From the NCBI GenBank assembly GCA_028692655.1, contig JAQUWY010000004.1, forward strand, positions 933 to 64,932: a DNA stretch of 64,000 nucleotides. Direction: 5' to 3'. Below are positions 19,529 to 62,973 of this stretch, one piece after another. The notes below the pieces were generated by a model that had not been told where the DNA came from, did not search any database, and saw nothing but the letters and a program-made list of their open reading frames with translations. The position numbers and the translations under genes are program-made. Each line of letters starts with the position of its first letter. Within the stretch, counting starts at the first letter, position 1. Source of the stretch: Candidatus Omnitrophota bacterium. GTDB taxonomy: Bacteria; Omnitrophota; Gorgyraeia; Duberdicusellales; 4484-171.

Positions 19529-19529
19529 C

Positions 19530-35881: not shown

Positions 35882-36933
35882 ATGGATAATCTACTAGCGA
35901 AATACAAAAGGATTAAAAAGTATACCAGAGGCATTATGGGCCATAGGCAGTGGTTTTGGAATGCAGCCGCTAAGGGCGTAGTATTGTTTTTGACGAACAG
36001 GTGTAATTCAAAATGCAGAATTTGCGGTATTTGGCAAGAGGAACCTAAAAAGGATATGCCTGTGGACATGGTGAAGTCTCTCTTAAAAAGCAGGCTTATC
36101 ATACCGGAGCATACTGTGTTTGTTATCCAAGGAGGAGAGGCTATATTGCACCCACGCTGCGGAGAGATATTAACAGCTATTCAAAAAAAGGTTTTAGTTA
36201 TACATTGCTTTCCAATGGGCTCGATAGTCACAAGTTGGTAGAGTTTGTTGAAAAATTCAGCATAAAGAATGTAAACTTGTCTTTGGATGGCCGTCCATCA
36301 ACGTATATGAACGTAAGAGGCGTGGATGGATACGATTCCGTTATAAAATCAATCGAGGAACTAAAAAAAAGAAAAGTGGCAGTAACGATAGCGTATACTG
36401 TTAATCCGTGGAATCGCCGGGAGGACTATACTCATATTCTGGGAATAGTCAAAAGATATGCTATTGGCCTGAGGACAGTTATATATGAAGACGCGAAAGT
36501 CTTTAACGTAGATTTTAAAGGGCGTGTTTTGTGTGACATTCCAGATTTAATGAAAAATGATTTAGAGCAAAAGTTTGTTTTGCTTTATAAAAAATGGCTG
36601 GAAGGCATGAAAATACCGTGCATGAGCATATTTGACAATACTTTTATAATGCCAAACGGTGACGTGCGACTGTGTCATGGCAGTGAGGTAGTATTGGGTA
36701 ATTTGTCAAAGGAGCTATTCGATTCTATATGGACATCAAAGAAGACAAAAAGAATCTTAAAGCAGCACATATTATGTAATAAATGCTACACTTACTGTCA
36801 TAGGAAGTTCGATATTTCTATACTTAATATTCTAAAATTTCTACCCACATTTATTTTAGAAAAGCTTTTTAAAGGTGACGTTAAGCTAATCATAGACGAA
36901 ATTAAACGCAAGGAAAGCGTTCCCTCCCGTTAA
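35882..36933 (+). pseudogene. radical SAM / SPASM-domain protein, frameshifted at an A7 run (36183-36189)
   Basis: Cx3Cx2C motif CNSKCRIC and GGEAILH in the first frame. The downstream frame continues with LLSNGLDS and the SPASM cysteines (CMSIF...CHG...CNKCYTYC). One extra A would fuse the frames, giving ...AIQKKGFSYTLLSNG.... Confidence 0.75.
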
Positions 36934-37229
36934 ACGGAAGCCTCACTTATTAACACTGTATTAGCTCAGGAGGAGCGGTTATCTTTTGCAAAATTTAGCT
37001 TGACCAGCGGTGCATATTAAAGGTAAAATTCAGACAGTAGCAGCTTTAGTAAGCTATAAAATTTAATCTCTCGGAATAAATCCCCGGGCTTTAGCCCGTG
37101 GGATGAATGTAATTGTAATTTTTTACTCGGGAGCAAGGCCATGTATCAAGACTGTAGAGGCCTTACAAGGGATGGATTTAAATATGTAAAACAGGAATTT
37201 GAGTAAATTGAGGATTTTAGAATTAAAAT

Positions 37230-38654
37230 ATGCAACGGAACTTAGTTTTTTTGAAAAGCGTATTTGCTGAAAATAGCAAGGTAACCAAACTAGATTCATT
37301 TTTTAGGTGGTTTAATATTCAGAAGGAGAATGTCGACGTCGAAGTAAACAAAATCCCCTTTAATGATTTAGGCTTGTGGTATTTTGACGCTCAGACAAAA
37401 GCTTTAAAGCATCGAAGCAATAAATTTTTCTCAATAGAAGGCATTCGCGTAGAAACAAATTATGGAAAAATACCTAAATGGGACCAACCAATTATTAATC
37501 AACCCGAAATAGGTTACCTGGGACTCATTGCAAAAGAGTTCGATGGGGTTTTACATTTTTTAATTCAAGCCAAGGTAGAACCCGGTAATATAAACTACGT
37601 ACAACTATCGCCGACTTTACAGGCAACTCGCAGTAACTATACTCAGGTACATAGCGGAAAGAAGCCGTTATATTTAGAATATTTTAAAAACGCTAAACCC
37701 CAAGATATTTTACTGGATCAATTGCAGTCAGAGCAAGGCGCTAGGTTTATTAAAAAACGCAATCGAAATTTAATTATAAAGGTCGATAAAGATATACCAG
37801 TTTACGACCATTTTGTCTGGGTGACATTAAAGCAAATTAAAAAGCTGTTACGGTTTGACAACCTTGTCAATATGGACACTAGAGCCGTTATTTCCGGAAT
37901 TACTTTTGGCTATTTCGAGCCGCAGGTAATTAATTTTTTTACTTTTCTTTACAATTCTAATAAAAACCCTATTAACAAAGCATTTCTAAAGTCAGCATTA
38001 CCAAGCAACAGCTCAGTTAATAGCCTCGAAGATATCATTCACTATATCACACAGCTAAAAAGTACTCTCAACCTTAAAATTACCAATATCCCACTTGATC
38101 AGTTAAAAAATTGGACGTTGGGTGAAAACGAAATTTACCATAATGAGCATAAGTACTTTAAAGTATTGGCTATCGATGTAAAGGTAAAAGGACGTGAAAT
38201 AACAAAATGGAGCCAGCCTATGGTTAAACCTGTTCAGGAAGGGTTATGTGCCTTTGTTTGTAAAGAAATTAATGGTTTGCTTCATTTTGTTGTCCAAATC
38301 AAACTAGAGTGCGGGAATTATGACATTGTCGAGCTTGCACCAACGGTACAATGTCTTACGGGGGATTATCCTCTCGCGAGGGAAGGGAAGCTCCCTTTTA
38401 TTGATTATGTATTAAAAGCTAAGCCGGAACAAATTATTTATAATGTTTTGCAGTCAGAAGAAGGAGGCAGATTTTTTAACGAGCAAAACCGGAATATGAT
38501 TGTATTAGCTAACGACGAAGTGTCAAATGAACTTCCGCCAAACTATATCTGGGTAACTTTAAGTCAGCTGCAAACTTTTTTAAAATTCAACAATTACTTG
38601 AATGTTCAAGCCCGTAGTTTGATTTCAGCTATTTCATTTTATAATGAAAGCTAA
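37230..38654 (+). CDS. NDP-hexose 2,3-dehydratase (duplicated-domain EvaA/TylX3/Gra-Orf27 family)
   Basis: 474 aa with an internal duplication (WDQPIINQPEIGYLGLIAKEFDGVLHFLIQAKVEPGN / WSQPMVKPVQEGLCAFVCKEINGLLHFVVQIKLECGN) characteristic of this family. Confidence 0.75.
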   Translation: MQRNLVFLKSVFAENSKVTKLDSFFRWFNIQKENVDVEVNKIPFNDLGLWYFDAQTKALKHRSNKFFSIEGIRVETNYGKIPKWDQPIINQPEIGYLGLIAKEFDGVLHFLIQAKVEPGNINYVQLSPTLQATRSNYTQVHSGKKPLYLEYFKNAKPQDILLDQLQSEQGARFIKKRNRNLIIKVDKDIPVYDHFVWVTLKQIKKLLRFDNLVNMDTRAVISGITFGYFEPQVINFFTFLYNSNKNPINKAFLKSALPSNSSVNSLEDIIHYITQLKSTLNLKITNIPLDQLKNWTLGENEIYHNEHKYFKVLAIDVKVKGREITKWSQPMVKPVQEGLCAFVCKEINGLLHFVVQIKLECGNYDIVELAPTVQCLTGDYPLAREGKLPFIDYVLKAKPEQIIYNVLQSEEGGRFFNEQNRNMIVLANDEVSNELPPNYIWVTLSQLQTFLKFNNYLNVQARSLISAISFYNES

Positions 38655-39633
38655 AACTATAAATATAGGAGTTATCGGTTGCGCCGATATTGCAGAGAGA
38701 TTTGTAATACCGGCCATTAAAAATTTAACCGACCAATATAAATTAGTTGGTGTTGCAAGCCGGGATCAAGCCAAAGCCTTGCAGTCTGCTGTTAAATTTA
38801 GTCTTCAACCTTACTGTGGCTATAATTCATTACTGGAATCGGGGCAGATAGATGCCGTTTATATACCTTTGCCTAGCGCATTGCACCAAGAATGGGCCGG
38901 AAAAGCATTAAAGCTTGGTTTGCATGTATTAGTAGAAAAGTCCTTGGCTTGCAGTTACAAAGAAGTCCAGTGGCTTAACCAACTGGCTAAAAATGAAGGA
39001 TTGGTTTTGATCGAAAACTTTCAATTCCGTTTTCATAGTCAACTAGCTATAATTAGCAAAATGCTTTCCGGAGGGGTTATAGGAGAATTAAGATGTTTGA
39101 GGAGCTCCTTTGGTTTCCCACTATCTCCTGATCCTGGAAATATCCGTTATCAAAAGAATCTTGGAGGAGGTGCTTTGTTTGATGCAGGTGCATACCCAAT
39201 CAAAATTGCCCAGCATTTTCTTGGCTTGAATCTTTCTGTTGAAGCAGCAAATCTTACATTTGACCATATAAATGAGGTAGATATATGGGGAGGAGCATAT
39301 CTTAAACAAAATAACGGAAAGCTTTTTGCAGAGATTGCTTTTGGTTTTGATAACTATTATCAATGCAGTATAGAATTGTGGGGCAGTAAAGGTACTCTTT
39401 GTGCAAAGCGTATTTTTACCGCACCCCCAGGACATTTTCCCGAAATAATTCTTGAAACGGTAAAGGGTATAGAGACAATACGGCTTCAACCCGATCACCA
39501 TTTTAAAAATATATTAAGACATTTTTATCAGCTTATTATTAACCCTAAAAGTTTAGAGGAAGAATATCGGCAAAATGAAAATCAAGCTAGGCTTATTGAA
39601 GAATTACGAATAAAAGCTTATGAGAAACAATAA
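38644..39633 (+). CDS. Gfo/Idh/MocA-family NAD(P)-dependent oxidoreductase (candidate sugar 3-ketoreductase)
   Basis: N-terminal Rossmann IGVIGCADIAERFVIPAI and the family layout. It sits between the 2,3-dehydratase and an aminotransferase. Confidence 0.75.
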   Translation: MKAKTINIGVIGCADIAERFVIPAIKNLTDQYKLVGVASRDQAKALQSAVKFSLQPYCGYNSLLESGQIDAVYIPLPSALHQEWAGKALKLGLHVLVEKSLACSYKEVQWLNQLAKNEGLVLIENFQFRFHSQLAIISKMLSGGVIGELRCLRSSFGFPLSPDPGNIRYQKNLGGGALFDAGAYPIKIAQHFLGLNLSVEAANLTFDHINEVDIWGGAYLKQNNGKLFAEIAFGFDNYYQCSIELWGSKGTLCAKRIFTAPPGHFPEIILETVKGIETIRLQPDHHFKNILRHFYQLIINPKSLEEEYRQNENQARLIEELRIKAYEKQ

Positions 39634-40705
39634 GCCAATTTTTGTCACTAAGCCTTCATTAGCACCGTTAAAGGAATACACAAAAATCCTTAAAGAGGTT
39701 TGGAGAAGAGGCGTACTTACGCACAATGGCCCTCTAGTCCAGTCATTAGAGGAAAAAATATGCAGGAAGTTTGGCCTTAACTATTTTGTAGCGGTTTCCA
39801 ATGGTACCATCGCTCTTCAGATGGCCATTAAGGCCTTGAAACTAAAAGGTGAAATAATCACCACTCCCTTTACATGGATAGCAACAATAAGCGCTATTAA
39901 ATGGCAAGGATGCCAGCCGGTTTTTTGTGATATCGATAGGCATACTTTAAATATTGACCCAGCTAAGATAGAATCTTTGATTACACCTTTGACAACGGCG
40001 ATACTTCCAGTGCATGTTTTTGGTAATCCTTGCGATATAGAAGGAGTAGAAGCTGTAGCTAAGAAGCATAAACTAAAAGTCATTTACGATGCCGCTCATG
40101 CGGTAGGCTCGACCTATAAAGGCAAAAGTATACTTAAATACGGCGATATTTCAGCTATCAGCTTTCACGCAACAAAGTTAATGAATACTGCCGAAGGCGG
40201 AGGATGTGTTGCAAAAAATCGAAAACTTTACGAAAAATTAAAATGTATTCGTTTTTTCGGCTATAATGACCAAAAGAATATGGTAGAGGAAGGGTTTAAC
40301 GGCAAGATGACTGAAGTTCATGCTGGGCTAGGCTTAGCTAATCTAAGATATTACAATAAGGTGCTTTCCGACAGAAAACATAAGTGTTTGTACTATCGCC
40401 AAAAGCTTTCTTCTCTAAAGTTTATTTCGTTTCAAGAATGTAAAACAAACGAGACAAATTACTCTTATTTCCCGGTTATATTTGATTCCGAAAAGAGACT
40501 TATCGCGGTTAAAAAAAAGCTGAATGCCAAAAGAATATTCCCTCGAAGGTATTTCTTCCCTTCAGTAAATACTTACACGAAGAACGATAACTATCGGCCA
40601 GCTCCTATTTCTGAAAGTATATCCAAGAGAATTTTATGTTTGCCTTTATACTGGGAGCTAAAAGTTGATGAAATGAAAAAAATTATAAAACTAATTTCTA
40701 AGTAG
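39620..40705 (+). CDS. DegT/DnrJ/EryC1/StrS-family PLP-dependent sugar aminotransferase (second copy)
   Basis: 361 aa. DAAHAVGS and SFHATKLMNTAEGG. Paralogous to 27976..29118. Confidence 0.85.
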   Translation: MRNNKPIFVTKPSLAPLKEYTKILKEVWRRGVLTHNGPLVQSLEEKICRKFGLNYFVAVSNGTIALQMAIKALKLKGEIITTPFTWIATISAIKWQGCQPVFCDIDRHTLNIDPAKIESLITPLTTAILPVHVFGNPCDIEGVEAVAKKHKLKVIYDAAHAVGSTYKGKSILKYGDISAISFHATKLMNTAEGGGCVAKNRKLYEKLKCIRFFGYNDQKNMVEEGFNGKMTEVHAGLGLANLRYYNKVLSDRKHKCLYYRQKLSSLKFISFQECKTNETNYSYFPVIFDSEKRLIAVKKKLNAKRIFPRRYFFPSVNTYTKNDNYRPAPISESISKRILCLPLYWELKVDEMKKIIKLISK

Positions 40706-40745
40706 AGGTGTGTTATATTAAATTGCTAACATTTTGTGTAAAGCT

Positions 40746-41417
40746 ATGGAAAAAATAGTAATTTATGGAGCAGGAAACCAAGCCAGAGTTGTAATTGATT
40801 CTGTTGAAAAGGAGCAAAAATATAATGTAATCGGGTTGATTGACGATGAAAAACCGGAGGGAACAGAAGTTTTAGGCTACAAAGTGATAGGAAACAAACA
40901 AAAGTTGTTAAGTTTATTGGGTTCTGGCATCCGCCTTTGCATCATTGCCATAGGCGATAACAAAGTAAGGAAAGAAAAGGCAGAATATATAATGGAGAAA
41001 AGTTTTAGCCTTGTTTCCGTGAAGCACCCGTTTTGTTCAGTTGGCAAAGGGACGTCTATTGGAGCAGGAACGGTTATTTTTCATGGGGTAGTTATAGATC
41101 CTGAGGTATCCATTGGCAAGTGCGTTATTATAAATGATAACACTTTGGTGGGGCACAATAGCAAGATAGGCGACTTTGCTCATATTTCTGCAGGGGTCAA
41201 CTTTGGAGGGGGTTCGGTCATTGAAGAAAATAGCTTTATAGGTATGGGAGTGACAGTTATTCCAAATATACACATAGGAAAAAATGTTTTTATAGGAGCC
41301 GGAAGCCTAATAGCAAGAGATATCCCGGATGACATGAAAGTTATTGGATTTATGCGCAAGACAATGATAAATAGAATAAATAAAGAAGTAAAACCAGACA
41401 ATAAAGAGTATACTTAG
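40746..41417 (+). CDS. PglD/NeuD-family sugar N-acetyltransferase (hexapeptide repeat)
   Basis: N-terminal Rossmann-like IYGAGNQARVVIDS followed by left-handed beta-helix repeats. Confidence 0.75.
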   Translation: MEKIVIYGAGNQARVVIDSVEKEQKYNVIGLIDDEKPEGTEVLGYKVIGNKQKLLSLLGSGIRLCIIAIGDNKVRKEKAEYIMEKSFSLVSVKHPFCSVGKGTSIGAGTVIFHGVVIDPEVSIGKCVIINDNTLVGHNSKIGDFAHISAGVNFGGGSVIEENSFIGMGVTVIPNIHIGKNVFIGAGSLIARDIPDDMKVIGFMRKTMINRINKEVKPDNKEYT

Positions 41418-43839: not shown

Positions 43840-44973
43840 ATGTTAAATATAGTACAAATACATACCGACAGTAAATTCATAGATGAAGGAATGAGCCGGT
43901 TCGAAAGTAAATTCTTCAGAAATACTTTAATAATATTTAAGGGTGGCAGGAAATATCATGGGAAGCATAGAGAGATAGCCAATGTGTTTAAAAGAAACCG
44001 TAAGAGCATAAAAAAGATAATAGATATTTGTAGTAATGCCGATCTTGTTGTGTTGTTTGATTTAGACGAAATAAAAAGCTATATTACAAACCGGCTTCCC
44101 AAAGAAACAAAAATTGCTTGGCGTTTTTTTGGACATGAATTATACGGTAGAAAAACTAAGACATTTCTAAGTAAATTAACAATAGAAGCTATTAAAAATA
44201 AGTGGTTTTTTTATCTGTGGCAAAGGTTAAAAAGAAGGCTAAAAAAAATAAAAGGTTACATTAAATGGGGGGTCGATTTCGAAAAGGAATTTAAGATAGC
44301 GCTTAAAAGAGTGGATTATTTTTTATGTACCTCTCAGGAAGAATGCAATTTCCTAAAAAAAATATGGCCGGGTTTACCCCAGTTTATCAGATTTCCAATA
44401 ATAAATAGCATAAAAGCAATTGCCGGTAATTTAGATAAAAGAGGGTTGCCTGTTGTTGTCGGGCACAATAAAATTGTTTGGAATAATCACCTTGAACTGA
44501 TAGAAATTATAGGAAACTCAAATAATAGAAAAAAACATAATTTTTTATTATTATTTAGTTATGGGTTAGAGAATAAATATACAAGAACAGTAAGGGAAAA
44601 GGCAAGCGGGTACCCTGAGATCAAATTTATTGAAAAGTTTATGTCCAAAGAGGAATTTGAAGTTTTTTATTCGCAGGTGTCCGCTTTAGTGATAAATACC
44701 TACAGACAAGCTGGCCTGGGAAATATTTTTCAAGCAATAAAAAACGGAGTAAAAGTGTATTTAAACGGAAAAAATATTGTTTTGCAATGGCTAAAAAATG
44801 AGAGGTTTCTAATATTCACTATTAAAGATTTTGCGAATGACATCGAAGATGACAATTTAGCTTTGGGAAAACAAGAAATTATCTATAATCAAAAACGGCT
44901 GGATAATATGTTGGGGAAACGGTCCATAGAGGATTTTCAAAAAGCAATATACGATAAAATAAATGAATTTTGA
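43840..44973 (+). CDS. WecF-like (TDP-Fuc4NAc:lipid II 4-alpha-L-fucosyltransferase family, GT56) glycosyltransferase
   Basis: Recalled similarity blocks to E. coli WecF: RFFGHELYG vs HIWGADLY, VVVGHNKIVWNNHLE vs ILVGNSGDRSNEHI, and GLGNIFQAIKNGVKVYLNGKN vs [21 protein letters not shown]. Confidence 0.45.
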   Translation: MLNIVQIHTDSKFIDEGMSRFESKFFRNTLIIFKGGRKYHGKHREIANVFKRNRKSIKKIIDICSNADLVVLFDLDEIKSYITNRLPKETKIAWRFFGHELYGRKTKTFLSKLTIEAIKNKWFFYLWQRLKRRLKKIKGYIKWGVDFEKEFKIALKRVDYFLCTSQEECNFLKKIWPGLPQFIRFPIINSIKAIAGNLDKRGLPVVVGHNKIVWNNHLELIEIIGNSNNRKKHNFLLLFSYGLENKYTRTVREKASGYPEIKFIEKFMSKEEFEVFYSQVSALVINTYRQAGLGNIFQAIKNGVKVYLNGKNIVLQWLKNERFLIFTIKDFANDIEDDNLALGKQEIIYNQKRLDNMLGKRSIEDFQKAIYDKINEF

Positions 44974-49787: not shown

Positions 49788-50975
49788 ATGAAAGTAGCTG
49801 AAAAAGAAAAATGCACTAGTTGTGGTAGTTGCTATAATGTTTGTCCGGTCAATGCTATAAGTATGAAGGAGGATAGAGAGGGGTTCTTAAGGCCTGCGAT
49901 AGATGAAAGGCTTTGCACAAATTGCGGTTTGTGTTCGAAAGTGTGCCCCGAGGTCAGTAATTACGAAGCCAAAGGATTTAAAAAACCTACTGTTTATGCA
50001 GCATGGAATTTAGATGAAGCAGTTCGAATAAATAGCAGCTCAGGAGGTATTTTCTCAGTTCTTTCCGATTATATATTAGAGCAGGGCGGGGTAGTATTTG
50101 GTGCAGCCTTTGATGAAAAACTTAAAGTAAAACATATCCCTGTATTTAGAAAAGAGGAATTGTATAAGCTCAGGGGCTCTAAATATGTTCAAAGTGAAAT
50201 CAATAACTCTTTCAGTCAAGTAAGAGAATATTTGGATGAAAACAAAAAAGTGCTATTTTCTGGTACTCCTTGTCAAGTAGCAGGCTTATTATCTTTTTTA
50301 GGTAAAGATCCCCCTAACTTGTTAACATGTGATTTTGTTTGCCACGGTGTTCTTTCTCCCAAGGTTTTTGTAGGATACTTGCGATATCTTGGCCAAGAAA
50401 ATAATTCAAAGGTAACAAAAATATATTTTAGAGACAAACGTTTTGGATGGGATAATTTTTCTGTACATGTAACTTTTAAAAACAATAAAGAATATACAGT
50501 ATCACCACGTAAGGATAAATTCTTTCGAGGGTTTGCAATGAGTGTTTATTTAAGACCATCTTGTAGTATTTGCCGATATGCTAAGATACCTCGTGTTGGA
50601 GATATCTCGCTTGGCGATTTCTGGGGTATTGGTGAAGAACAGAAGTTTACATATAATACGCACGATGGCGTTTCAATGGTTTTAATAAACAGCACTAAAG
50701 GTGAAGATATTTTTGATTTATGCCGGGATAGATGTTTTATAAAACAGCGCGAGTTAAAAGAAGCTGTTAAAAACAATGCGCACCTGAGTTTGCCGTCAAA
50801 AGCCAGTAAATACAGAACTATTTTTTTCTCGATTTTTAACAGGAAAGGTTTTGCTGCTGCCTCAAAAAAATATTCGGGCAACGGAATAATAAAAAGAATA
50901 GTTACTAAAATCGTTGGTTCAAAAATAATCAAGATTATTGAGTGGGGACGGTTTATGCTATTTAAAAAAACTTAA
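49788..50975 (+). CDS. coenzyme F420 hydrogenase/dehydrogenase beta-subunit (FrhB)-like Fe-S protein
   Basis: Two Cx2Cx2Cx3C motifs (CTSCGSCYNVCP, CTNCGLCSKVCP) and FrhB N/C domains. Paralogous to the N-terminal part of 24424..26247. Confidence 0.7.
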   Translation: MKVAEKEKCTSCGSCYNVCPVNAISMKEDREGFLRPAIDERLCTNCGLCSKVCPEVSNYEAKGFKKPTVYAAWNLDEAVRINSSSGGIFSVLSDYILEQGGVVFGAAFDEKLKVKHIPVFRKEELYKLRGSKYVQSEINNSFSQVREYLDENKKVLFSGTPCQVAGLLSFLGKDPPNLLTCDFVCHGVLSPKVFVGYLRYLGQENNSKVTKIYFRDKRFGWDNFSVHVTFKNNKEYTVSPRKDKFFRGFAMSVYLRPSCSICRYAKIPRVGDISLGDFWGIGEEQKFTYNTHDGVSMVLINSTKGEDIFDLCRDRCFIKQRELKEAVKNNAHLSLPSKASKYRTIFFSIFNRKGFAAASKKYSGNGIIKRIVTKIVGSKIIKIIEWGRFMLFKKT

Positions 50976-50996: not shown

Positions 50997-52040
50997 ATGA
51001 TAGTTTATCAACTTAAGAAATATTTTCTAAGAATATTAGGGTTTATAATTAAAAAACTCGATTACCCTTTATATCTTGCCAAAAAAAATACATCTAATAA
51101 ATGGAAGAAAAAATATGGTGGTGAATTTAGGATTGGGATGGATGACCCCGTTTTAAGTATTCTTTTTGACATAACAAGTCGTTGTAACTATAATTGCGAA
51201 TATTGTTCTTCCAGCCAGGTAAGGAACAAAAAGAGACATATCCTTCGATGCCGGGATGCTTTCCAATACTATTCTGTAGAAAAATGGGTGGAAGCATTCA
51301 GGTTAGTGGAATTTGAGTACACACTTACTATATCTGGTGGAGAACTTTTTGTATTAGGGGAAAATTTTCACAATTTTTTAAAAGGTGTAGCCGCTCTGGA
51401 TAATGTTAAGCTTATAACAATATGCACTAACGGGGCGCTAATAACCAAAATGGAACAGCTCGACGAAAAAGTTAGAGAGAAAACAACATTGATGGTCTCT
51501 TATCATCCTACCCAAATTAGTAAAGAGAGTTATGTTGAGGCAATAGACGATGTTTGTTGCCGCGGATGGCATATCGGAATGTTTGTCTACGTTATGGAAG
51601 CCAATCAAGTCGACCAATATGAAGACGCAAAGAAAATGCTTACGGATAGATATGCTGTTGGCTTGCTGGCCAATCCGGATGTAAAAAACAATTGCAAACA
51701 GCAGAAGTTAAAAGCATGCGGGAAGTATATTTCTCGAAAAGACCTGTTTCAAAAAGTAGGATCAACCACCTTCGGAAAGTTTTGTTTTTTCCCAGCTATT
51801 GCATATGAACTGTCAGCAACAGGGATAGCATATCGAGGTTGTACCGGAAAAGGAAAAACAAACTTTATCCATAACAGTAAATCTTTGTATCCCCTTAAAA
51901 GGCCTGTCCCTTGTCCTTTACCCGTATGTTATTGTCTTAATAAATATGCTTTTTTAGAAGATTTTTCTGAACGAGGCCGGGAATTAGACTTAGTTGGGGA
52001 GTATGCCAAGAAAGAAAAAAATATTGTTAATGAAATGTAA
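50997..52040 (+). CDS. radical SAM domain protein with a Cys-rich C-terminus
   Basis: Cx3Cx2C (CNYNCEYC) near residue 60 and ISGGELF. The C-terminal cysteines (CTGKG...PCPLPVCYC) suggest an auxiliary cluster. Confidence 0.65.
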   Translation: MIVYQLKKYFLRILGFIIKKLDYPLYLAKKNTSNKWKKKYGGEFRIGMDDPVLSILFDITSRCNYNCEYCSSSQVRNKKRHILRCRDAFQYYSVEKWVEAFRLVEFEYTLTISGGELFVLGENFHNFLKGVAALDNVKLITICTNGALITKMEQLDEKVREKTTLMVSYHPTQISKESYVEAIDDVCCRGWHIGMFVYVMEANQVDQYEDAKKMLTDRYAVGLLANPDVKNNCKQQKLKACGKYISRKDLFQKVGSTTFGKFCFFPAIAYELSATGIAYRGCTGKGKTNFIHNSKSLYPLKRPVPCPLPVCYCLNKYAFLEDFSERGRELDLVGEYAKKEKNIVNEM

Positions 52041-53272: not shown

Positions 53273-53274
53273 AT

Positions 53275-54423: not shown

Positions 54424-54462
54424 TCGTACAAGGTTTTTACAGGCGTGAGATTGAATTAAAAA

Positions 54463-54873: not shown

Positions 54874-54951
54874 TGATCTTCCCCCGAAAAAGTGGACACT
54901 TTGAAGAGTTGGTAGTAGGATAAAACCAGCTCAAGGAAAAGGAGGTGTCTG

Positions 54952-55260
54952 GTGGACGGGGTTAAGCGTAAAATCAAACGCTTTGACAGGGATTTTAAGA
55001 TTTCAGCAGTGAAGATGATCACCGAAGGAGGCCACAGAGCATCGGAAGTGGCCAGAAGCTTAGGGATTCATTCCAACGTACTGTATAGCTGGAAAAAGAA
55101 GTATGCCGACAATGGAGATAAAGCCTTTGTTGGAAAAGGCCATTTAACCGAAATGGCAGCACTCCGTAAAGAATTACGCGAAACACAGATGGAGCGTGAT
55201 ATCTTAAAAAAAGCAGTCGGCATATTTTCAAAAGAAAATCAGAACGGTTCAGATTCATAG
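54952..55260 (+). CDS. IS3-family transposase OrfA (HTH)
   Basis: GTG start after AAGGAGG. KISAVKMITEGGHRASEVARSLGIHSNVLYSWKKKY is a typical IS3 OrfA. Confidence 0.85.
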   Translation: MDGVKRKIKRFDRDFKISAVKMITEGGHRASEVARSLGIHSNVLYSWKKKYADNGDKAFVGKGHLTEMAALRKELRETQMERDILKKAVGIFSKENQNGSDS

Positions 55261-56123
55261 ATCAATGCAGCTCTGATTATCCGCTCGGGATAATATGCCG
55301 GGTACTAAATGTTTCCAAGAGCGGTTATTATCAATGGAAAACCAGGCCTAAAAGCCAACTCCGGATAGACAATGATAAATTGCTCATTGAAATACGCAGG
55401 GTATTCTGGGAGAATGACCGTGATTACGGCAGCCCCCGGGTATGGAATCAGCTGCGCAATAAAGAACACATACCCTGTTCGGTAAACCGTATCGCCCGGC
55501 TTATGCGTATTGACAACCTGGTTGCCGTGCACAAACGTAAATTCCGGGTGACCACTAATTCTAAGCATGATTACCCGGTATGGTCTAATTTGCTGAACCG
55601 TAACTTTATGGTTACCCGGCCCAATAGAGTCTGGGTATCGGATATAACCTATATCTGGACTCATGAAGGCTGGCTGTACTTGGCGGCGATCATGGATTTG
55701 TATTCCCGGGGAATCATCGGCCTGGCTATGGATAAAACTATTGCCGACACTTTGGTTATGCAAGCTATGAAGCAGGCAATTCTCAGGCGCAATCCGGATG
55801 AAGGGTTGATTCTTCACTCTGACCGAGGCAGCCAATATGCCGGTAACGATTTTAAGGCGTTACTTTCCGGCCATAAGTTCGTTGGCAGCATGAGCCGTAA
55901 AGGCGACTGTTACGATAATGCGGCGGCAGAGAGCTTCTTCCATACGCTTAAGGTAGAGCTTATACACCGGATGAAATTCAGGACCCGGGAAGAAGCAAAG
56001 AGAAAAATCTTTGAGTACGTGGAAATGTACTACAACACTAAAAGGGCGCATTCAACGCTGGGTTATCTCAGCCCTTTTGAATTTGAAAATCGGGTTTCTC
56101 AATCTTTATTAACTGTCCACTAA
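55212..56123 (+). CDS. IS3-family transposase OrfB (DDE integrase core), expressed by a -1 frameshift from OrfA
   Basis: The -1 frame opens at the A7G slippery run (55206-55213). It has rve-domain motifs (VWVSDITYI, HSDRGSQYA, CYDNAAAESFF). Confidence 0.8.
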   Translation, partial: SSRHIFKRKSERFRFIDQCSSDYPLGIICRVLNVSKSGYYQWKTRPKSQLRIDNDKLLIEIRRVFWENDRDYGSPRVWNQLRNKEHIPCSVNRIARLMRIDNLVAVHKRKFRVTTNSKHDYPVWSNLLNRNFMVTRPNRVWVSDITYIWTHEGWLYLAAIMDLYSRGIIGLAMDKTIADTLVMQAMKQAILRRNPDEGLILHSDRGSQYAGNDFKALLSGHKFVGSMSRKGDCYDNAAAESFFHTLKVELIHRMKFRTREEAKRKIFEYVEMYYNTKRAHSTLGYLSPFEFENRVSQSLLTVH

Positions 56124-56137
56124 AGAGGGGAAGGTCA

Positions 56138-56458
56138 CCTTGGCAGTGGTGGGTGCATGAAATCCCTTATGATTATTTTAGATATACGCCGTATGGGTTA
56201 AGATACATGTTTGAAAAAGCTGGATTTAAAGATATAAGTATAGAGGCTTTATCTGGTTTTTTTGTTACGTCGATTCTTAAAATAAATTATTTTAGTGCTA
56301 GATTTATAAAGGGGCCCAAACCTTTGAGATGGCTAATTTTATATTTACTTGTCCCCATATGGACTATTTGCCAGTTTTTGGCGCCATATCTTGATAAATT
56401 CGATAAAAATTGGGATGCAGAGGCTGTGGGATATATTGTATTGGCATGGAAAAGGTAG
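56138..56458 (+). pseudogene. 3' portion of the IS-interrupted class I methyltransferase
   Basis: HEIPYDYFRYTPYGLRYMFEKAGF is the typical C-terminal segment of Methyltransf_11 proteins. It is in frame with 54463..54873 once the IS and one CCT are removed. Confidence 0.7.
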
Positions 56459-56500
56459 GAAATCTACAATAATTTTTAATTTTCCTCAAATCTATACTAA

Positions 56501-57703: not shown

Positions 57704-57757
57704 ACAGCAAAATATAAAAAGGCAAAATACTCTTGTGTTTAAAAAGTTGTCTATAAA

Positions 57758-58984: not shown

Positions 58985-59001
58985 AATAAAAATATATTTA
59001 A

Positions 59002-59363
59002 AAAAGCTATCTTCTGAGAATAGATGCTATAATTAACGATGGGAGATTAAGGGAAGATGTTATCTTTACCGAGTATGTTCCTTCAGGAAATTTGCCCGCG
59101 TTTTATACCAACGCGAGCGTGTTAGTTTGCCCAACGTTATTTGAAGGTTTTGGGTTGCTTTATGCGGAACCAAAGCCTGGCGTGTGCCTGGTAGGTGCTT
59201 CTAATACGAGTTCGATTTTGGAATTAGTCAATCCCGCGCGATATTAGCTAATTTATGCAGTATTAAGGAGATGGTTTCGGCGACGCAGAGAATCGTTGCA
59301 GACAGTGAAATATGGTTGAAACTAATAAGAAAAAAGTTGTGCCGGGCAGGATCATTATCTTAG
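59002..59363 (+). pseudogene. C-terminal remnant of a family 4 glycosyltransferase (frameshifted, no N-terminal domain)
   Basis: ...DVIFTEYVPSGNLPAFYTNASVLVCPTLFEGFGLLYAEPKPGVCLVGASNTSSILELV shows the GT4 C-terminal motif region (PS.yEGFGl...SNtsSipE). It continues in another frame to about 59363 and lacks a start or N-terminal Rossmann domain. Confidence 0.5.
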
Positions 59364-59402
59364 ATAAAAGGCGTATAAAAATGCTAAAAGCTTTCGAAAA
59401 AT

Positions 59403-60224
59403 ATGGTCTTAAATCGAAGGATTAAAATAGCGTATTTCTGGATATTTAAAAAAAAACATAATGTAAGAATAAAAGAACTTTTTTATTTTATCCGAAAGCC
59501 GCGGGTTGAAAGAATAGGTTTGAGGTTTATAAAAAACATCAATTATTCAAATGACTTTAAAATAGTTTCATTTAAGTCAATGCGCAATGAGTTATATTTA
59601 CCTTACAGTTATAGACTAAACGAATTATATAGAATCTGCGCCGAAACTTTTGATACAAGTGACTGGCATCATTATGAAAATGGAGTAGGTAAGGTTAATG
59701 AAAACGATATTGTGGTTGATGCCGGTTCTGCTGAGGGGTTGTTTTCTTTGTCAATAGTCGAAAGATGTAAAAAAGTTTTTGTTGTTGAGCCGAATAGAAA
59801 TTTTATTCGTGCCCTGAAAAAAACTTTTGAGCAGTTTAATCCGCAAAAAGTGGAGCTGTTTAATGCTGCTTTGGGTGATAATAACGTTTTGGCGAAAGCA
59901 ATAGGAAAAGGAATCAGCGGCAGCGTTGTTGAATCAAAAAAAGGCGATATAAAAATAACCACACTTGATAATTTATTGAAAGATAAAGGCAAAATAACCT
60001 ACATAAAAGCTGATTTGGAAGGTTGGGAGATGAAAATGTTAATCGGGGCTAAAGGTATTATTTCAAAGTATAAACCCAAAATTGTGATTACCGCATACCA
60101 TCGCGATAACGAGCAAGGAAAAATGATAAATTTTTTAAAACAAATCGTTCCAGAATATAAATACAGGGTTAGAGGGATTTCGCAGTATTCTGGCAGACCT
60201 ATTCTAGTTTGGTTTTGGGTATAA
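59403..60224 (+). CDS. FkbM-family methyltransferase
   Basis: VVDAGSAEGLFSLSIVERCKKVFVVEPNRNF matches the Methyltransf_21/FkbM signature. Confidence 0.7.
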   Translation: MVLNRRIKIAYFWIFKKKHNVRIKELFYFIRKPRVERIGLRFIKNINYSNDFKIVSFKSMRNELYLPYSYRLNELYRICAETFDTSDWHHYENGVGKVNENDIVVDAGSAEGLFSLSIVERCKKVFVVEPNRNFIRALKKTFEQFNPQKVELFNAALGDNNVLAKAIGKGISGSVVESKKGDIKITTLDNLLKDKGKITYIKADLEGWEMKMLIGAKGIISKYKPKIVITAYHRDNEQGKMINFLKQIVPEYKYRVRGISQYSGRPILVWFWV

Positions 60225-60248
60225 ATAGCCAATGGAAACAGAGCAAAG

Positions 60249-61628
60249 ATGAAAAAAATAATACATACAACAATTTTTTTAATAATAGGGGTATTAATAA
60301 TCTATTTAATAAGCAAAGATTCCGAATCAAGGGCTTCCTGGATTGTTTCTGGTTTATTGACGGTTGTCTTACTTGCTATTTTGCCCGTTAAGTATTTTCT
60401 TTATTTTTTTATAGGCTCTCTTTTCTTTGACCGGTATATCTGGGAGTTTTTAAATTTTAGCATCAGGCCGAGCCAAATCATGGGAATTCTTTTATTTCTA
60501 AAATGGTTATTTGCAGTGAAGCATAAACGCAGTATCTTTAGTAACATTCTATTTATTCCGCTCGTCCTTTTTATAGTTGCAAGTTTAATTTCCAGCATAT
60601 TCAATTCAGGAGACTTGTCCAGAAATTTGCAGCTCGTCCTTCTTTCTGTCGTATTCTTTTGTCCTATTTTCCCAGTGGTAAGCTTGCTTGGTAATCAGAA
60701 AAATTACGAAAAAATTTTAAAATTCTATATTTTATTAGGAGCAGCCATGGCTGTCTATGGATTGATTGCCTACATTTTATTTGTCATGTTTAATATTAAT
60801 ATAGGCGTAATAAATTCTGAATTGGGAGGCAGGATAGTTGGAACACAGCATAATGCAGGAGATCATTTCGGATTGCAGATGATGTTTTTTGTAATTATAA
60901 TGTTCAACTATCTCCATGTGCGTTCTATATTTATTTCAACCAGAAAAATAAAATTATTGCTTTTTATATTTATCCCCGCGATGATGCTATCCTTTAAAAG
61001 GATAGCTTTTATAGGTGTAATTATTTCGTTCCTTTCAAGTTGGCTGGTTTTATGTTCTCAGCATAAAATGATGGTTTTTGCGAAAAAATTTCTGGGATTA
61101 ATAACCGTAGGTTCCATATTAGTTATTTTATTTAATTTATTAACTGTTAAAGAAAACGTTATTATAGATAGAGAAATAGTAACCCGAAGGTATTCTAAAG
61201 ATATAAATGTTCAAACACATTCTATGCAGAGTCGTTTAAACAATTGGGAAATTGGCCTGGAGATATACAAGGAGCATCCCTTAATAGGGAATGGCCCCGG
61301 AACTGCCGAAGGCGGGTTTTGGGTATCAAATGTATTGATACGTACGATGGCCGATACAGGAATCCTAGGGTTGCTTGCTGTAATATTCTTGCTGGTAAGG
61401 ATTTTTATGTTAGGTTTCAGGGCAGTGCGTTTTTCCAACAAAGTTAATGCTGCAGCCATTAATGTTCATGTAGTAGGAATGTTATCGGCATTCATTTCTC
61501 TGGTTTTTGTTAATATGGTAGACGACCAGTTTTTATTGGGCATGTTCTGGTTCCATATCAGTTTAATTGTAGCGACATTTAATTTAGCTATAAAATTGGG
61601 AACACAGACTGAAAGGCAGATAGTATAG
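60249..61628 (+). CDS. O-antigen ligase/polymerase family (Wzy_C domain) polytopic membrane protein
   Basis: At least 10 predicted TM helices with a large loop containing HPLIGNGPG typical of WaaL/PglL/Wzy_C proteins. Confidence 0.65.
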   Translation: MKKIIHTTIFLIIGVLIIYLISKDSESRASWIVSGLLTVVLLAILPVKYFLYFFIGSLFFDRYIWEFLNFSIRPSQIMGILLFLKWLFAVKHKRSIFSNILFIPLVLFIVASLISSIFNSGDLSRNLQLVLLSVVFFCPIFPVVSLLGNQKNYEKILKFYILLGAAMAVYGLIAYILFVMFNINIGVINSELGGRIVGTQHNAGDHFGLQMMFFVIIMFNYLHVRSIFISTRKIKLLLFIFIPAMMLSFKRIAFIGVIISFLSSWLVLCSQHKMMVFAKKFLGLITVGSILVILFNLLTVKENVIIDREIVTRRYSKDINVQTHSMQSRLNNWEIGLEIYKEHPLIGNGPGTAEGGFWVSNVLIRTMADTGILGLLAVIFLLVRIFMLGFRAVRFSNKVNAAAINVHVVGMLSAFISLVFVNMVDDQFLLGMFWFHISLIVATFNLAIKLGTQTERQIV

Positions 61629-61815
61629 ATTTGCCGATGCTACAACGTTGCGGTAACGTATACCCCGGTGAATTGCATTGCCCATTTTGAAGAACTCGGT
61701 TAAAATAGTGCAAAAAATGCATTGGAGATGTTCTTTAAAGCACCCCCCGGTCGTTGTTAGTCTAAATAACTTTTGAGATCATTATACTGTAGGAAATCAA
61801 TAGGGAATATAACCA

Positions 61816-62973
61816 ATGACTTTTAAAACCGATGTGATTAAATTGCTGGTTAATTATTTCTATAAACCTATTTCACCAATTGAAGTCATATTGTATTTAA
61901 CGAATAAGTGTAATCTTAAATGCAAATTCTGTGATATAGGGATAGCAAATATTAAAAAAGAACCTCATCCCTATAGGGAATTGTCTCTTTTGCAATTAGA
62001 TAAGATTGTGAAAGCGATGGTTGCATTAAAGGTAGAAAAAGCTTATATTACCGGTGGAGAACCATTCTTAGCGGAAAATTTATGGTACTTTCTGGATTTA
62101 TGTTGTCGCAACTCAAGGCAAATCAGTGGAATAACTACAAATGGTAATACTTTGAATGCCTTAACAAAAGAGCAGGTAGACATTTTAAATTACGCTAAAA
62201 CCCGGCGCATCATTATTTCTGTAGATTATGCTTCTGCGGATAAACACGATGCCTTCAGGGGTAGAGTTGGGCTTTTTAGAGATATAGAAACATTTCTGGT
62301 TTCTGAAAAGTCAGACAGAATAAAAAGTAATTACTGGATTTCAACAGTAATCAGTAAAGATAATTATAAGGAGTTGCCGGAGTTAATCAAATGGGCTGCT
62401 ACCATTAATAAAATACGACATATAAATTTTCAACCGGTATGCGTCGAGCCTATATTTGTAGATTACAAAAGGTGCAAGACAAGCCAAGATGCTTTATATG
62501 CAAGCGCAGCATTTTTGAATGAACTGGAAACATATATTTCCGCCGCACTAAAAACAGCAGAAGATTACGGCATGTCCACTAGCCTGCCTTTTCTTAAGTT
62601 ATGGATAAAAGAATATTTCAAATACGCAAAAACTGAGGAGTACTTTTTTAAGAAGGTAATGAAAGGCTTTATTTGCTCTAGGCCGTATAATTATCTTTCT
62701 GTTAATTATAACGGGGACATTCTGGCGTGTACTCACATAGGGCCTACAGGGAGTATTGATAAAGGCGATATCATTTCTGTCTGGAGACAATCCGCAGAAA
62801 AGTATAGAAAAAGCTTTAAAAAAGGCGTATATTTTGAGAAATGTAAAAGCTGTTTCTGTGACTTCGGGTCTAATTATAGGGCTTCGCTATTGTATGAGCC
62901 GATGAAGAATATCAAACATGTTTTTGCTGTGATTCCGTATTATATAAATAGACTTTTGAAGAAAACCAATTAA
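61816..62973 (+). CDS. radical SAM / SPASM-like domain protein
   Basis: Cx3Cx2C (CNLKCKFC) at residues 32-39, ITGGEPFL, TTNGN, and C-terminal cysteines (C...CTHIGPTG...CKSCFCDFG). Confidence 0.7.
   Translation: MTFKTDVIKLLVNYFYKPISPIEVILYLTNKCNLKCKFCDIGIANIKKEPHPYRELSLLQLDKIVKAMVALKVEKAYITGGEPFLAENLWYFLDLCCRNSRQISGITTNGNTLNALTKEQVDILNYAKTRRIIISVDYASADKHDAFRGRVGLFRDIETFLVSEKSDRIKSNYWISTVISKDNYKELPELIKWAATINKIRHINFQPVCVEPIFVDYKRCKTSQDALYASAAFLNELETYISAALKTAEDYGMSTSLPFLKLWIKEYFKYAKTEEYFFKKVMKGFICSRPYNYLSVNYNGDILACTHIGPTGSIDKGDIISVWRQSAEKYRKSFKKGVYFEKCKSCFCDFGSNYRASLLYEPMKNIKHVFAVIPYYINRLLKKTN

Follow-up and report, generated by a model that had tools for sequence, protein, structure and literature searches.

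The window analysed here is a 64,000-nucleotide stretch of a Candidatus Omnitrophica genome, in which a surface-polysaccharide (EPS- or O-antigen-like) island begins at 24.4 kb, adjacent to oriC and a cluster of tRNA genes. The island is at least 50 kb long, and the window holds its first ~40 kb. Glycan genes are present all along the stretch from 24.4 to 64 kb, and in locus L001 they run on to GGDEF, PilZ, Poly_export and Wzz genes. The encoded proteins include glycosyltransferases (GT2, GT4, GT9, GT34-like and GT56-like), pyruvyl, carbamoyl, formyl, acetyl and methyl transferases, a 2,3-dehydratase, DegT aminotransferases, a Wzy_C protein and an MsbA-type ABC exporter. An IS3-family insertion (orfA and orfB, 54952..56123, + strand, GC 0.42) interrupts a methyltransferase gene whose halves flank it at 54463-54876 and 56153-56458, and is a mark of island decay and mosaicism. 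A GT4 remnant lies at 59092-59247.

Just four of the 75 window ORFs of at least 100 amino acids contain the spacing C...C..C, and all four lie inside the glycan island. The first-pass annotation had assigned an N-proximal Cx3Cx2C motif to three genes, here called rSAM1, rSAM2 and rSAM3, and we find the motifs CNSKCRIC, CNYNCEYC and CNLKCKFC, respectively, along with GGE motifs. It was likewise correct that none of the ORFs carries a B12-binding domain. The single ORF it had listed at 35882..36933 for rSAM1 does not exist as such, because these 1052 nt comprise two ORFs in different frames (35882-36241 and 36205-36933).

The N-terminal reading frame of rSAM1 (35882..36241, + strand, 119 aa) includes CNSKCRIC at aa 41 and the GGE motif, and scores 30.9 bits against the Pfam Radical_SAM cutoff of 29.5 bits. 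The C-terminal frame (36190..36933, + strand, from GFSYTLLSNG to the stop) encodes a twitch-like domain (SPASM, 37.8 bits) with C247, C265, C299, C302 and C306 in the numbering of the repaired 350-aa protein. The two are split by the loss of one nucleotide in an A7 run (36183..36189, + strand), such that a premature stop ends the N-terminal frame. An identical lesion is present in three other assemblies (GCA_028715335.1 and two Logan assemblies), making four in total, whereas orthologues elsewhere are unbroken; that of locus L024 reads CAA AAG CAA GGT TTT in frame at the site. A -1 slippery heptamer, A_AAA_AAG, is in the 0 frame at the A7 run (36184-36190), and no significant structure is evident downstream of it (z -1.04). 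The 1-nt deletion inactivates rSAM1 in this genome, and the gene probably contributes nothing in this strain.

Adjoining rSAM1 are deoxy-amino-sugar genes for an NDP-hexose 2,3-dehydratase, a GFO-type reductase, a DegT aminotransferase and a PglD-like N-acetyltransferase (37230..41417, + strand). The order rSAM1-DegT-GT56 is found in both L024 (69-71% identity) and L104 (59%), and in L105 (40% identity to rSAM1) the order is ATP-grasp-rSAM-GT4-GT4. The window has its own GT56 (WecF)-like glycosyltransferase gene (43840..44973, + strand; weak WecF match, 43.6 bits), which is the counterpart of the GT56 gene downstream of rSAM1 orthologues, with 23% identity between its product and the L024 protein. 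This arrangement has a precedent in DesI/DesII, a PLP aminotransferase and a radical SAM deaminase that act on TDP-4-amino-4,6-dideoxy-D-glucose (PMC11434129). The genetic logic is the same, in that rSAM1 orthologues lie right beside genes for a DegT-family aminotransferase and a GT56 of the TDP-sugar type, pairing an aminotransferase with a radical enzyme on what would be a TDP-deoxy-amino sugar. DesII is also a fold match of rSAM3 (TMq 0.58), although there is no sequence-level similarity and rSAM1 is a pseudogene in this genome. DesII is not known to have an auxiliary-cluster domain.

The second gene, rSAM2 (50997..52040, + strand, 347 aa), encodes CNYNCEYC at aa 63-70 and the family-invariant residues C263, C282, C306, C311 and C313. 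Its Radical_SAM score of 28.6 bits is slightly under the Pfam cutoff, and we accept it as a radical SAM protein because family conservation and the predicted fold confirm the assignment. A gene for an FrhB-like flavoprotein with a 2x[4Fe-4S] ferredoxin domain (49788..50975, + strand) lies 22 nt upstream, and the gap on the other side of rSAM2 is 45 nt. The FrhB-like flavoprotein is a conserved neighbour, given that the sole close relative of rSAM2 (L023, 53% identity) has such a gene directly downstream; upstream in L023 is a fragment read by eye, and unscored, as a WecB-like C-terminus. Because broader relatives (34-38% identity, in myxobacteria) lie outside glycan loci, a glycan role for rSAM2 draws on the two loci in the window and L023.

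By sequence, rSAM2 is a divergent representative of a small family whose nearest curated neighbour is NCBIfam STM4011, although it falls outside that neighbour. The profile for that family (NF038073, STM4011 family radical SAM protein) matches 32 of 32 aligned rSAM2-family members, with a match over the whole length (profile positions 10-263 of 278), but rSAM2 scores 53.9 bits versus a cutoff of 200 and its locus lacks partner genes of the STM4012-4015 type. The one paper found to name STM4011 gives no description of its function. More generally, no cutoff of a curated NCBIfam family (MoaA, QueE, RiPP maturases, viperin or STM4011) is reached by these rSAM proteins. It is exceedingly improbable that they are housekeeping or defence enzymes (MoaA, QueE, viperin-like or an STM4011 cassette) that reside in the island by chance. 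Window proteins do yield weak matches to MoaA and pVip/viperin, as rSAM2 does to STM4011, and one myxobacterial rSAM2 relative adjoins another large rSAM protein. However, these matches are confined to the common rSAM core, fall well under the cutoffs (MoaA at most 65.8 bits versus 284; viperin at most 43 versus 180), and the partner genes of such systems are absent. None of the three proteins belongs to a housekeeping family. The QueE profile has no match to rSAM1-3 at E <= 0.01, its matches being confined to rSAM2-family relatives (13 of 32 aligned members, best E-value 1.7e-9).

The third gene, rSAM3 (61816..62973, + strand, 385 aa), has CNLKCKFC at aa 32-39, a Radical_SAM score of 66.3 bits and a twitch-like C-terminal domain; C96, C287, C305, C343, C346 and C348 are invariant or near-invariant. 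Genes for an FkbM-family methyltransferase and a Wzy_C (O-antigen ligase/polymerase-like) protein (59403..61628, + strand) lie upstream of it both here and in L012. Downstream is a GT4 glycosyltransferase gene (GT4b, 62997..64000, + strand) that extends past the window end, followed in the same genome by rSAM4, a 320-aa protein of rSAM/SPASM type encoded from about 64120, ~120 nt beyond the window. Of the 13 distinct loci with readable flanks that encode rSAM3 family members (33-66% identity), every one is a glycan locus. In six of them the rSAM3 gene sits beside an rSAM4 orthologue (49-65% identity) and in three more beside another rSAM, and a GT4b-like gene occurs in seven, as does a Bac_transf gene no more than four genes away. 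By comparison, rSAM3 relatives at ~25% identity, used as a negative control, are nearly devoid of such neighbours. The rSAM3 and rSAM4 genes are a conserved pair; elsewhere they share a cassette with genes for a GT4, a priming phosphoglycosyl transferase and often a methyltransferase.

In L001, the gene directly after rSAM4 belongs to the geranylgeranyl-reductase family (TIGR02032, 160.6 bits versus a cutoff of 158.8), which leaves room for a lipid substrate.

One could propose that the rSAM proteins act on a lipid part of the system, be it the polyprenyl-phosphate carrier or a lipid that anchors the polymer, together with this adjacent flavoprotein, for example by C-C or C-H chemistry on isoprenoids. 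A 54%-identical copy of the reductase-family gene follows rSAM3 and Bac_transf in L012, the priming transferase, which charges the lipid carrier, is closely linked to rSAM3, and the rSAM3 and rSAM4 sequences, read by eye, suggest C-terminal helices that are basic and amphipathic. There are also weak matches to the tetraether lipid synthase Tes (56.8 bits) and, in the fold search, to GDGT-MAS. Yet the reductase neighbour is present in just two of the 13 loci, both Omnitrophica-like, the Tes score is far under its cutoff of 450, the TM-score to GDGT-MAS is 0.42, and the commonest neighbours are glycosyltransferases and methyltransferases. We consider a lipid substrate unlikely.

Some or all of these genes might instead be decaying passengers of a hypervariable island, without current function. 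Hypervariable polysaccharide cassettes have been reported for Omnitrophota (10.64898/2026.06.07.730766), and the rSAM1 frameshift shared by four assemblies, the split methyltransferase gene and the GT4 remnant are in keeping with such decay. Moreover, rSAM2 departs from its family at six positions where at least 85% of members agree (including GGEP to GGEL, R141 to T and D143 to C). P0020 shows the same departures, so a subfamily trait is a better reading of them than random decay. Furthermore, rSAM2, rSAM3 and rSAM4 are intact, full-length ORFs that retain all cluster cysteines, and the orthologues and synteny of rSAM3 and rSAM4 are conserved across divergent loci. We regard the passenger reading as quite unlikely.

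The extra C-terminal cysteines noted in the first-pass annotation are indeed conserved, and of its label SPASM/twitch-like the second part applies rather than full SPASM. All the families share the pattern CX12GX4-5C...CXnC(XC), with n from 2 to 4, and because four or five cysteines are invariant, versus the seven of a full SPASM motif, we regard the domains as twitch-like with one auxiliary cluster. In the AF2 models, both of high confidence (pLDDT 93.6 and 87.0), a beta-hairpin separates the first auxiliary cysteine from the second, and a helix comes next; this secondary structure and the cysteine pattern suggest that the conserved residues would ligate the cluster. Foldseek matches for rSAM2 and rSAM3 are SPASM/twitch rSAM proteins (SkfB, BlsE, SuiB, DesII, anSME, MoaA, SpeY and BtrN). 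For rSAM1-3 there is no close solved structure (PDB chain identity at most 21%, TM-scores about 0.6 or lower), and none of these rSAM families has a characterised homologue.

Several carbohydrate enzymes are instructive for comparison. BtrN and SpeY are twitch-domain radical SAM dehydrogenases of aminoglycoside and aminocyclitol pathways that, like the proteins here, carry a single auxiliary cluster in a short domain C-terminal to the radical SAM core, show the cysteine pattern C...G-X4-C, helix, CX2-3C, lack an RRE and have a carbohydrate-pathway context. Both are among the fold matches, yet TMq is just 0.3-0.4 and there is no sequence match at E <= 1e-3. The proteins here are also 70-140 aa longer (rSAM3 adds a conserved region at aa 200-285) and reside in cell-surface polysaccharide loci rather than antibiotic clusters. 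The twitch radical SAM decarboxylase BlsE acts on cytosylglucuronic acid (PMC3715490), a sugar-nucleoside, although in a nucleoside antibiotic pathway. Among the fold matches of rSAM3 it ranks second (TMq 0.59/TMt 0.69), and for rSAM2 it is in the top five. Its sequence match to rSAM3 is weak (E 4e-6) and confined to the core, and identity is 12-16%.

The peptide modifiers SkfB and EpeE are also twitch-type and among the top fold matches.

The first-pass annotation had offered peptide-modifying (RiPP-like) activity as an alternative. We find it very unlikely that the proteins are peptide or protein maturases, whether through RiPP-type thioether formation or epimerisation or through anSME-like maturation of an enzyme whose gene lies in the island or close by. 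The fold class is the same, SkfB leads the PDB matches of rSAM1 and rSAM3 in both sequence and fold, and SuiB, CteB, EpeE and anSME are other leading matches. Weak NCBIfam matches to many RiPP maturases, the MsbA-type exporter and a 42-aa Cys-containing ORF upstream of rSAM1 (35526-35654) could be read in the same way. Nevertheless, the reading is disfavoured because neither a precursor peptide nor an RRE domain turned up. Specifically, RRE/PqqD domains are absent, the N-termini are short and the cluster motif begins at aa 14-63, the gaps flanking rSAM2 are 22 and 45 nt, small ORFs are unconserved and have no room in L024, L105 and L012, the exporter lacks a C39 peptidase domain, and no sulfatase-like target was seen. 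Scores are far under curated maturase cutoffs (e.g. AlbA 47 versus 850, SkfB 43 versus 300), and there are four or five auxiliary cysteines versus seven or eight in SPASM enzymes.

The neighbours confirm the glycan setting proposed at the outset, and a role in sugar or glycan chemistry fits the gene neighbourhoods that each family keeps in other genomes. Because each rSAM adjoins its own sugar-pathway partners elsewhere, the most likely task of these enzymes is to tailor unusual sugars, not peptides. The view that three in one island is unusual was half right. None of the other loci found combines rSAM1, rSAM2 and rSAM3, and each belongs to a separate module, but multi-rSAM glycan loci recur among related uncultured bacteria (four in a row in L035; two each in L012, L024, L013, L015 and L028).

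On balance, we lean towards four different, independent radical enzymes with single auxiliary clusters, serving separate sugar-tailoring modules in an EPS island that is mosaic and has partly decayed. The rSAM1 module would be a TDP-amino-deoxy-sugar branch, with orthologues directly upstream of DegT aminotransferase and GT56 genes, and the rSAM2 module would pair that enzyme with the FrhB-like Fe-S flavoprotein, perhaps its reductant or partner, among pyruvyl and glycosyl transferases. As for mechanism, we infer that SAM would be reductively cleaved at the Cx3Cx2C cluster of each enzyme, and the resulting 5'-deoxyadenosyl radical would take hydrogen from a carbon of the sugar in an intermediate linked to a nucleotide or a lipid, with the auxiliary cluster as substrate binder or electron acceptor. 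The outcome may be oxidation, dehydration, deamination or epimerisation, which would yield unusual sugars without O2.

The radical SAM (rSAM) genes lie in an unbroken glycan island that extends from 24.4 kb to the end of the window and begins only about 8 kb from the likely replication origin. In the origin region (8678-20363) the minus strand encodes dnaA, dnaN, gyrB and gyrA and the plus strand yidC and parAB, and the GC skew changes sign at about 14-16 kb, so the gap between dnaA and yidC (16327-16918) is likely to be oriC. Four tRNA genes (Cys-GCA, Leu-TAA, Val-GAC and Asp-GTC; 22625-23992) stand directly before the first gene of the island at 24424, and this cluster is a plausible island boundary or integration hotspot. 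The island opens with an unusual fusion of an FrhB-like Fe-S/flavin domain to a hexapeptide O-acetyltransferase (24424-26247; 607 aa, 24 cysteines), followed in the first block by an aldo-keto reductase, methyltransferases, a DegT aminotransferase, a formyltransferase, an unusual fusion of an ATP-grasp domain to an NAD-dependent epimerase/dehydratase (30204-32228; 674 aa) and a carbamoyltransferase. The same genome encodes a CofD/YvcK-family protein (5618-6883, minus strand; PF01933, 371 bits) extended at its N-terminus by about 100 aa, and the glycan island contains several FrhB-like (F420-type) domains.

The second block begins with the first radical SAM gene, rSAM1 (35882-36933), and continues with a 2,3-dehydratase, a GFO reductase, a DegT protein, a PglD-like acetyltransferase and an MsbA-type ABC protein. 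A third holds a GT56-like (WecF-like) transferase, two pyruvyl transferases, a GT2, a WbuX-like amidotransferase and an FrhB-like Fe-S flavoprotein (49788-50975), and a fourth holds rSAM2 (50997-52040), a GT34-like protein, a GT4 and a methyltransferase split by an IS3 element. Two GT9 genes, an FkbM methyltransferase and Wzy_C make up the fifth block, and rSAM3 (61816-62973) with a second GT4 (GT4b, 62997-64000) the sixth. Beyond the window the same genome continues with a fourth gene of the radical SAM/SPASM type, rSAM4 (320 aa, about 120 nt past the window end), a geranylgeranyl-reductase-family gene, and then GGDEF, TPR, PilZ, Poly_export and Wzz genes.

Direct reading bears out the N-proximal Cx3Cx2C motif that the first-pass annotation had assigned to the three window proteins (CNSKCRIC, CNYNCEYC and CNLKCKFC). 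The pattern C...C..C occurs in just 4 of the 75 window ORFs of at least 100 aa, all four inside the glycan island, the fourth being the FrhB-hexapeptide fusion, which is not a radical SAM protein. Pfam Radical_SAM (cutoff 29.5 bits) matches rSAM3 at 66.3 bits and the N-terminal fragment of rSAM1 at 30.9 bits, with SPASM matches of 29.0 bits in rSAM3 and 37.8 bits on the C-terminal fragment of rSAM1. For rSAM2 the Radical_SAM score is 28.6 bits, slightly under the cutoff, and SPASM is unmatched; its cluster motif is invariant in 32 aligned relatives and present in 36 of 41 in a wider set, where the others are gapped, and its AF2 model matches radical SAM structures alone. rSAM1-3 thus all belong to the radical SAM superfamily (PF04055), which is defined by Cx3Cx2C and GGE motifs and a partial TIM-barrel core. 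The claim that they lack a cobalamin domain also holds, since Pfam gives no PF02310 (class B, B12-binding) match in any of rSAM1-4; separate B12-rSAM genes are carried by two related loci (L012 and L035).

The extra C-terminal cysteines prove to be conserved, being invariant or nearly so within each family. In the rSAM1/rSAM4 family these are C247, C265, C299 and C302, with C306 added in the rSAM1 branch and four conserved auxiliary cysteines in rSAM4 itself; in the rSAM2 family they are C263, C282, C306, C311 and C313, and in the rSAM3 family C287, C305, C343, C346, C348 and also C96. The pattern common to the families is CX12GX4-5C, a gap, and then C(X2-4)C(XC). The seven-cysteine SPASM motif reportedly reads CX9-15GX4C...CX2CX5CX3C...C, and the pattern found here corresponds to its first half plus a short cysteine pair. 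SPASM domains hold two auxiliary [4Fe-4S] clusters and twitch domains one (PMC10470005). Of the earlier description as SPASM/twitch-like, the twitch part therefore stands and a full SPASM domain (PF13186/TIGR04085) does not, with only four or five cysteines conserved per family against seven. We consider the families to be of the twitch type, with ligands that appear sufficient for one predicted auxiliary cluster.

Structure prediction gives a partial view of the ligands of this cluster. In the confident AF2 models of rSAM3 (pLDDT 93.6, pTM 0.92) and rSAM2 (pLDDT 87.0, pTM 0.86) a beta-hairpin separates the first two auxiliary cysteines (strands 293-296 and 301-303 between C287 and C305 in rSAM3; 269-272 and 277-280 between C263 and C282 in rSAM2) and a helix precedes the last group (319-335, ahead of C343, in rSAM3); the ligation itself is a prediction. 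Foldseek searches of the PDB returned SPASM/twitch-type radical SAM enzymes alone for both proteins, none of them close: SkfB (TMq 0.61), BlsE, SuiB, DesII, CteB and anSME for rSAM3, and MoaA (0.50), TigE, BlsE, anSME, EpeE, SpeY and BtrN for rSAM2. PDB sequence matches are weak and confined to the core. The resemblance to sugar-modifying enzymes is one of fold, with TMq values of 0.42 (rSAM3) and 0.32 (rSAM2) for BtrN (4M7T), 0.31-0.34 for SpeY against rSAM2 and up to 0.58 for DesII against rSAM3, but not one of sequence membership, as no PDB match to 4M7T, 7WZV or 8HZV was obtained at E <= 1e-3.

It might be supposed that these proteins are housekeeping or defence enzymes, given that several such models recognize their cores. 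However, none of rSAM1-4 reaches the cutoff of any NCBIfam model. MoaA scores are 65.8 bits for rSAM3, 31.6 for rSAM2 and 53.7 for rSAM4, where the equivalog cutoff is 284. Neither rSAM1 nor rSAM2 matches a QueE model at E <= 0.01, and QueE is absent from the 25 best matches listed for rSAM3, so that neither housekeeping assignment applies. A clostridial QueE model does match 13 of the 32 aligned rSAM2-family members (best E-value 1.7e-9). The PADLOC pVip profiles match at 40-49 bits over partial profiles only, in the viperin radical SAM core, and NCBIfam viperin scores are at most 43 bits against a cutoff of 180, which places the proteins outside pVip. The best NCBIfam scores are likewise far from membership: N_Twi_rSAM for rSAM3 (81.3 bits versus 170), about 78 bits versus cutoffs of 500-650 for rSAM4, and STM4011 (NF038073) for rSAM2 (53.9 bits versus the subfamily cutoff of 200), a model matched by all 32 rSAM2 relatives with a best E-value of 3.2e-25.

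The three window proteins are rare. Relatives of rSAM1 amount to 18 matches among 5.8 billion clusters, and those of rSAM3 at 35% identity or more to about 27. A word-indexed search found one relative of rSAM2, and a HMMER scan of 1.84 billion representatives gave 175 matches, 79 at E <= 1e-10 and 9 at E <= 1e-30. Profile comparison relates the rSAM3 family to the rSAM1/rSAM4 family from end to end, C-terminal domain included (probability 99.5%, 282 columns), while rSAM2 has the core alone in common with both (166 columns). rSAM1 and rSAM4 are distant paralogues (26% identity, E 3e-23).

Decay is evident in the island, and the radical SAM genes could accordingly be imagined as decaying passengers. 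An IS3-family element (orfA 54952-55260, orfB to 56123; GC 0.42 versus about 0.35 in the flanks), with the canonical A_AAA_AAG frameshift motif at 55207, divides a class-I methyltransferase into 54463-54876 and 56153-56458; a search with a seed of 9 found no terminal inverted repeats. Public contigs of the same organism end within this element. The 419-nt gap between the second GT9 gene (GT9b) and the FkbM gene holds a 51-aa ORF (59092-59247), probably a gene remnant, with similarity to a GT4 C-terminal core (...LVCPTLFEGFGLLYAE...). Against the passenger explanation, decay among the radical SAM genes holds for rSAM1 alone.

The segment 35882-36933 (1052 nt) had been annotated as one ORF, but consists of two ORFs, 35882-36241 and 36205-36933, which overlap and are read in different frames. 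The break is an A7 run (36183-36189), and joining the frames there yields a 350-aa protein that is colinear with its orthologues across the junction (...AIQKKGFSYTLLSNG... in the repaired protein versus ...AVQKQGFNYALLSNG... in the orthologue P0002 of locus L024). The window gene is short of one nucleotide, because the L024 orthologue reads in frame at this site (CAA AAG CAA GGT TTT). The same truncation to 119 aa is seen in GCA_028715335.1 and two Logan assemblies, and hence the lesion is no artefact of a single assembly. The deletion leaves a dnaX-type slippery heptamer, A_AAA_AAG, in the 0 frame (36184-36190), where a -1 slip would exactly restore full-length rSAM1. We considered programmed -1 frameshifting and rejected it: no stimulatory structure was found downstream of the heptamer (z -1.04), the AT-rich window contains 43 copies of the heptamer, the SD-like GGAGAG is placed 17 nt upstream, and the orthologues are in frame. 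We therefore treat rSAM1 as a recent pseudogene, for which leaky rescue or phase variation is possible. Independent Logan assemblies from the same population (L007, L008 and L010) break in the 37088 region, between rSAM1 and the 2,3-dehydratase, which suggests strain heterogeneity at a module junction. Polysaccharide cassettes of Omnitrophota have been described as hypervariable (preprint 10.64898/2026.06.07.730766), and the mosaic, decayed island fits that description.

Comparison loci, most of which are short metagenomic contigs, tie each gene to partners of its own. The three window genes were found together in no other locus. Seventeen distinct loci of the rSAM3 family (33-66% identity) came from look-ups and a single metagenome scan, and all 13 with readable flanks are glycan loci. 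Six loci (the window, L013, L015, L028, L032 and L035) have an rSAM4 orthologue (49-65% identity) no more than two genes from rSAM3, and three more (L036, L039 and the locus of protein P0039) have a different radical SAM gene there. Seven of the 13 have a GT4b-like gene, Bac_transf (the priming sugar-phosphate transferase) lies within four genes of the rSAM3 homologue in seven of the 13, and FkbM and other methyltransferases are frequent nearby. Four radical SAM genes are consecutive in L035 (2729-9681), where the order is B12-rSAM, rSAM3 homologue, B12-rSAM, rSAM4 homologue, GT4 and Bac_transf. As a negative control only, we took relatives of rSAM3 at about 25% identity, which we count as other families; more than 30 of their loci of at least 6 kb contained no glycosyltransferases, and two gave a DegT-like match.

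Orthologues of rSAM1 in L024 (69-71% identity) and L104 (59%) are each followed by a DegT (411 aa) and a GT56 (393 aa). Both partners are present in the window, separated by the 2,3-dehydratase branch, and a more distant relative (L105, 40% identity) has the order ATP-grasp, rSAM, GT4, GT4. The glycan link of rSAM2 comes from two loci. Its sole close relative, P0020 (53% identity), lies on a 2-kb contig (L023), directly followed by an FrhB-like 2x[4Fe-4S] protein that is 32% identical to the window FrhB-like protein, whose gene ends 22 nt before rSAM2; a fragment before P0020 looks by eye, unscored, like a WecB C-terminus. A search with a six-sequence alignment found only myxobacterial relatives (34-38% identity, Kofleriaceae/Haliangiales), none of them in glycan loci, and the wider rSAM2 family is therefore without glycan support. 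rSAM2 and P0020 also depart together from the family consensus (GGEP to GGEL/GRET, IRIDTNG to ITICTNG/ISIVTNG, and H87 to D/N). The pairing with FrhB, the distant relatives outside glycan loci and these common departures together indicate that the two proteins form a diverged sub-branch.

The first-pass annotation had offered peptide modification as an alternative, in which these enzymes would be RiPP or protein maturases. This has not been borne out: Pfam finds no PqqD/RRE match in rSAM1-4, whose cluster motifs start at aa 14-63, no conserved small ORF stands beside the radical SAM genes, and maturase models (among the families considered were sactisynthases and ranthipeptide and darobactin enzymes) score far under their cutoffs, as with AlbA at 47.1 versus 850 and PapB at 49.2 versus 340. 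The small ORFs at 35526-35654 and 61678-61776 were tried as precursor peptides and rejected as unconserved. The possibility that the target is a lipid draws on a geranylgeranyl-reductase-family neighbour in 2 of the 13 loci and on weak similarity to Tes/GDGT-MAS. The neighbour in this genome, an FAD protein after rSAM4 (L001, a locus of the same genome, 9639-10745, or about 65128-66234 in window numbering, outside the window), scores 160.6 bits for TIGR02032 versus a cutoff of 158.8, and a 54%-identical copy follows rSAM3 and Bac_transf in the closest related locus (L012, 12021-13109). A polysaccharide locus is not where such a gene would be expected, and its presence hints that a polyprenyl carrier is saturated.

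We favour the view that these radical enzymes tailor sugars independently of one another and were recruited into a mosaic island, in keeping with their class, their conserved auxiliary ligands and the synteny specific to each module. The steps for rSAM1, rSAM2 and the rSAM3/rSAM4 pair we infer as follows. The rSAM1/DegT/GT56 triad recalls the logic of DesI/DesII, which act on TDP-4-amino-4,6-dideoxyglucose (PMC11434129), although rSAM1 is not a member of that family and the likeness is by analogy. Linkage to the priming transferase and a second-step glycosyltransferase suggests that rSAM3/rSAM4 may act early in repeat-unit assembly, or on a donor used there. The FrhB-like neighbour could plausibly be a dedicated reductant of rSAM2, because in vivo reduction of radical SAM clusters is an acknowledged gap (PMC10470005). 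A bolder joint reading, which we regard as rather improbable, is that the rSAM3-rSAM4-GT4-phosphoglycosyl-transferase cassette would constitute a new membrane radical route acting on the first lipid-linked repeat-unit sugars or on the polyprenyl carrier, with rSAM2 and the FrhB-like protein as a dedicated radical-enzyme/reductase pair. If true, rSAM3/rSAM4 would be the first radical SAM enzymes known to act on Und-PP-linked glycan intermediates.

Most of the known sugar chemistry of radical SAM enzymes comes from antibiotic pathways (BtrN, DesII, AprD4 and BlsE). Twitch-type enzymes in sugar pathways are already known; what is new is the families, their surface-polysaccharide setting and the conserved cassettes, and no description of these families was found in the searchable literature on radical SAM or SPASM proteins in polysaccharide loci, on STM4011 or on Omnitrophota and radical SAM. 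Both the rSAM3/rSAM4/GT4/priming-transferase cassette and the rSAM1/DegT/GT56 triad are compact, lend themselves to testing and could yield new sugar-modifying reactions. The rSAM2/FrhB pairing is relevant to the in vivo reduction of radical SAM enzymes, which is an open question (PMC10470005). More broadly, four uncharacterised twitch-type families with conserved partners in surface-polysaccharide loci suggest that radical enzymes are a routine means of surface-glycan diversification in these uncultured bacteria.
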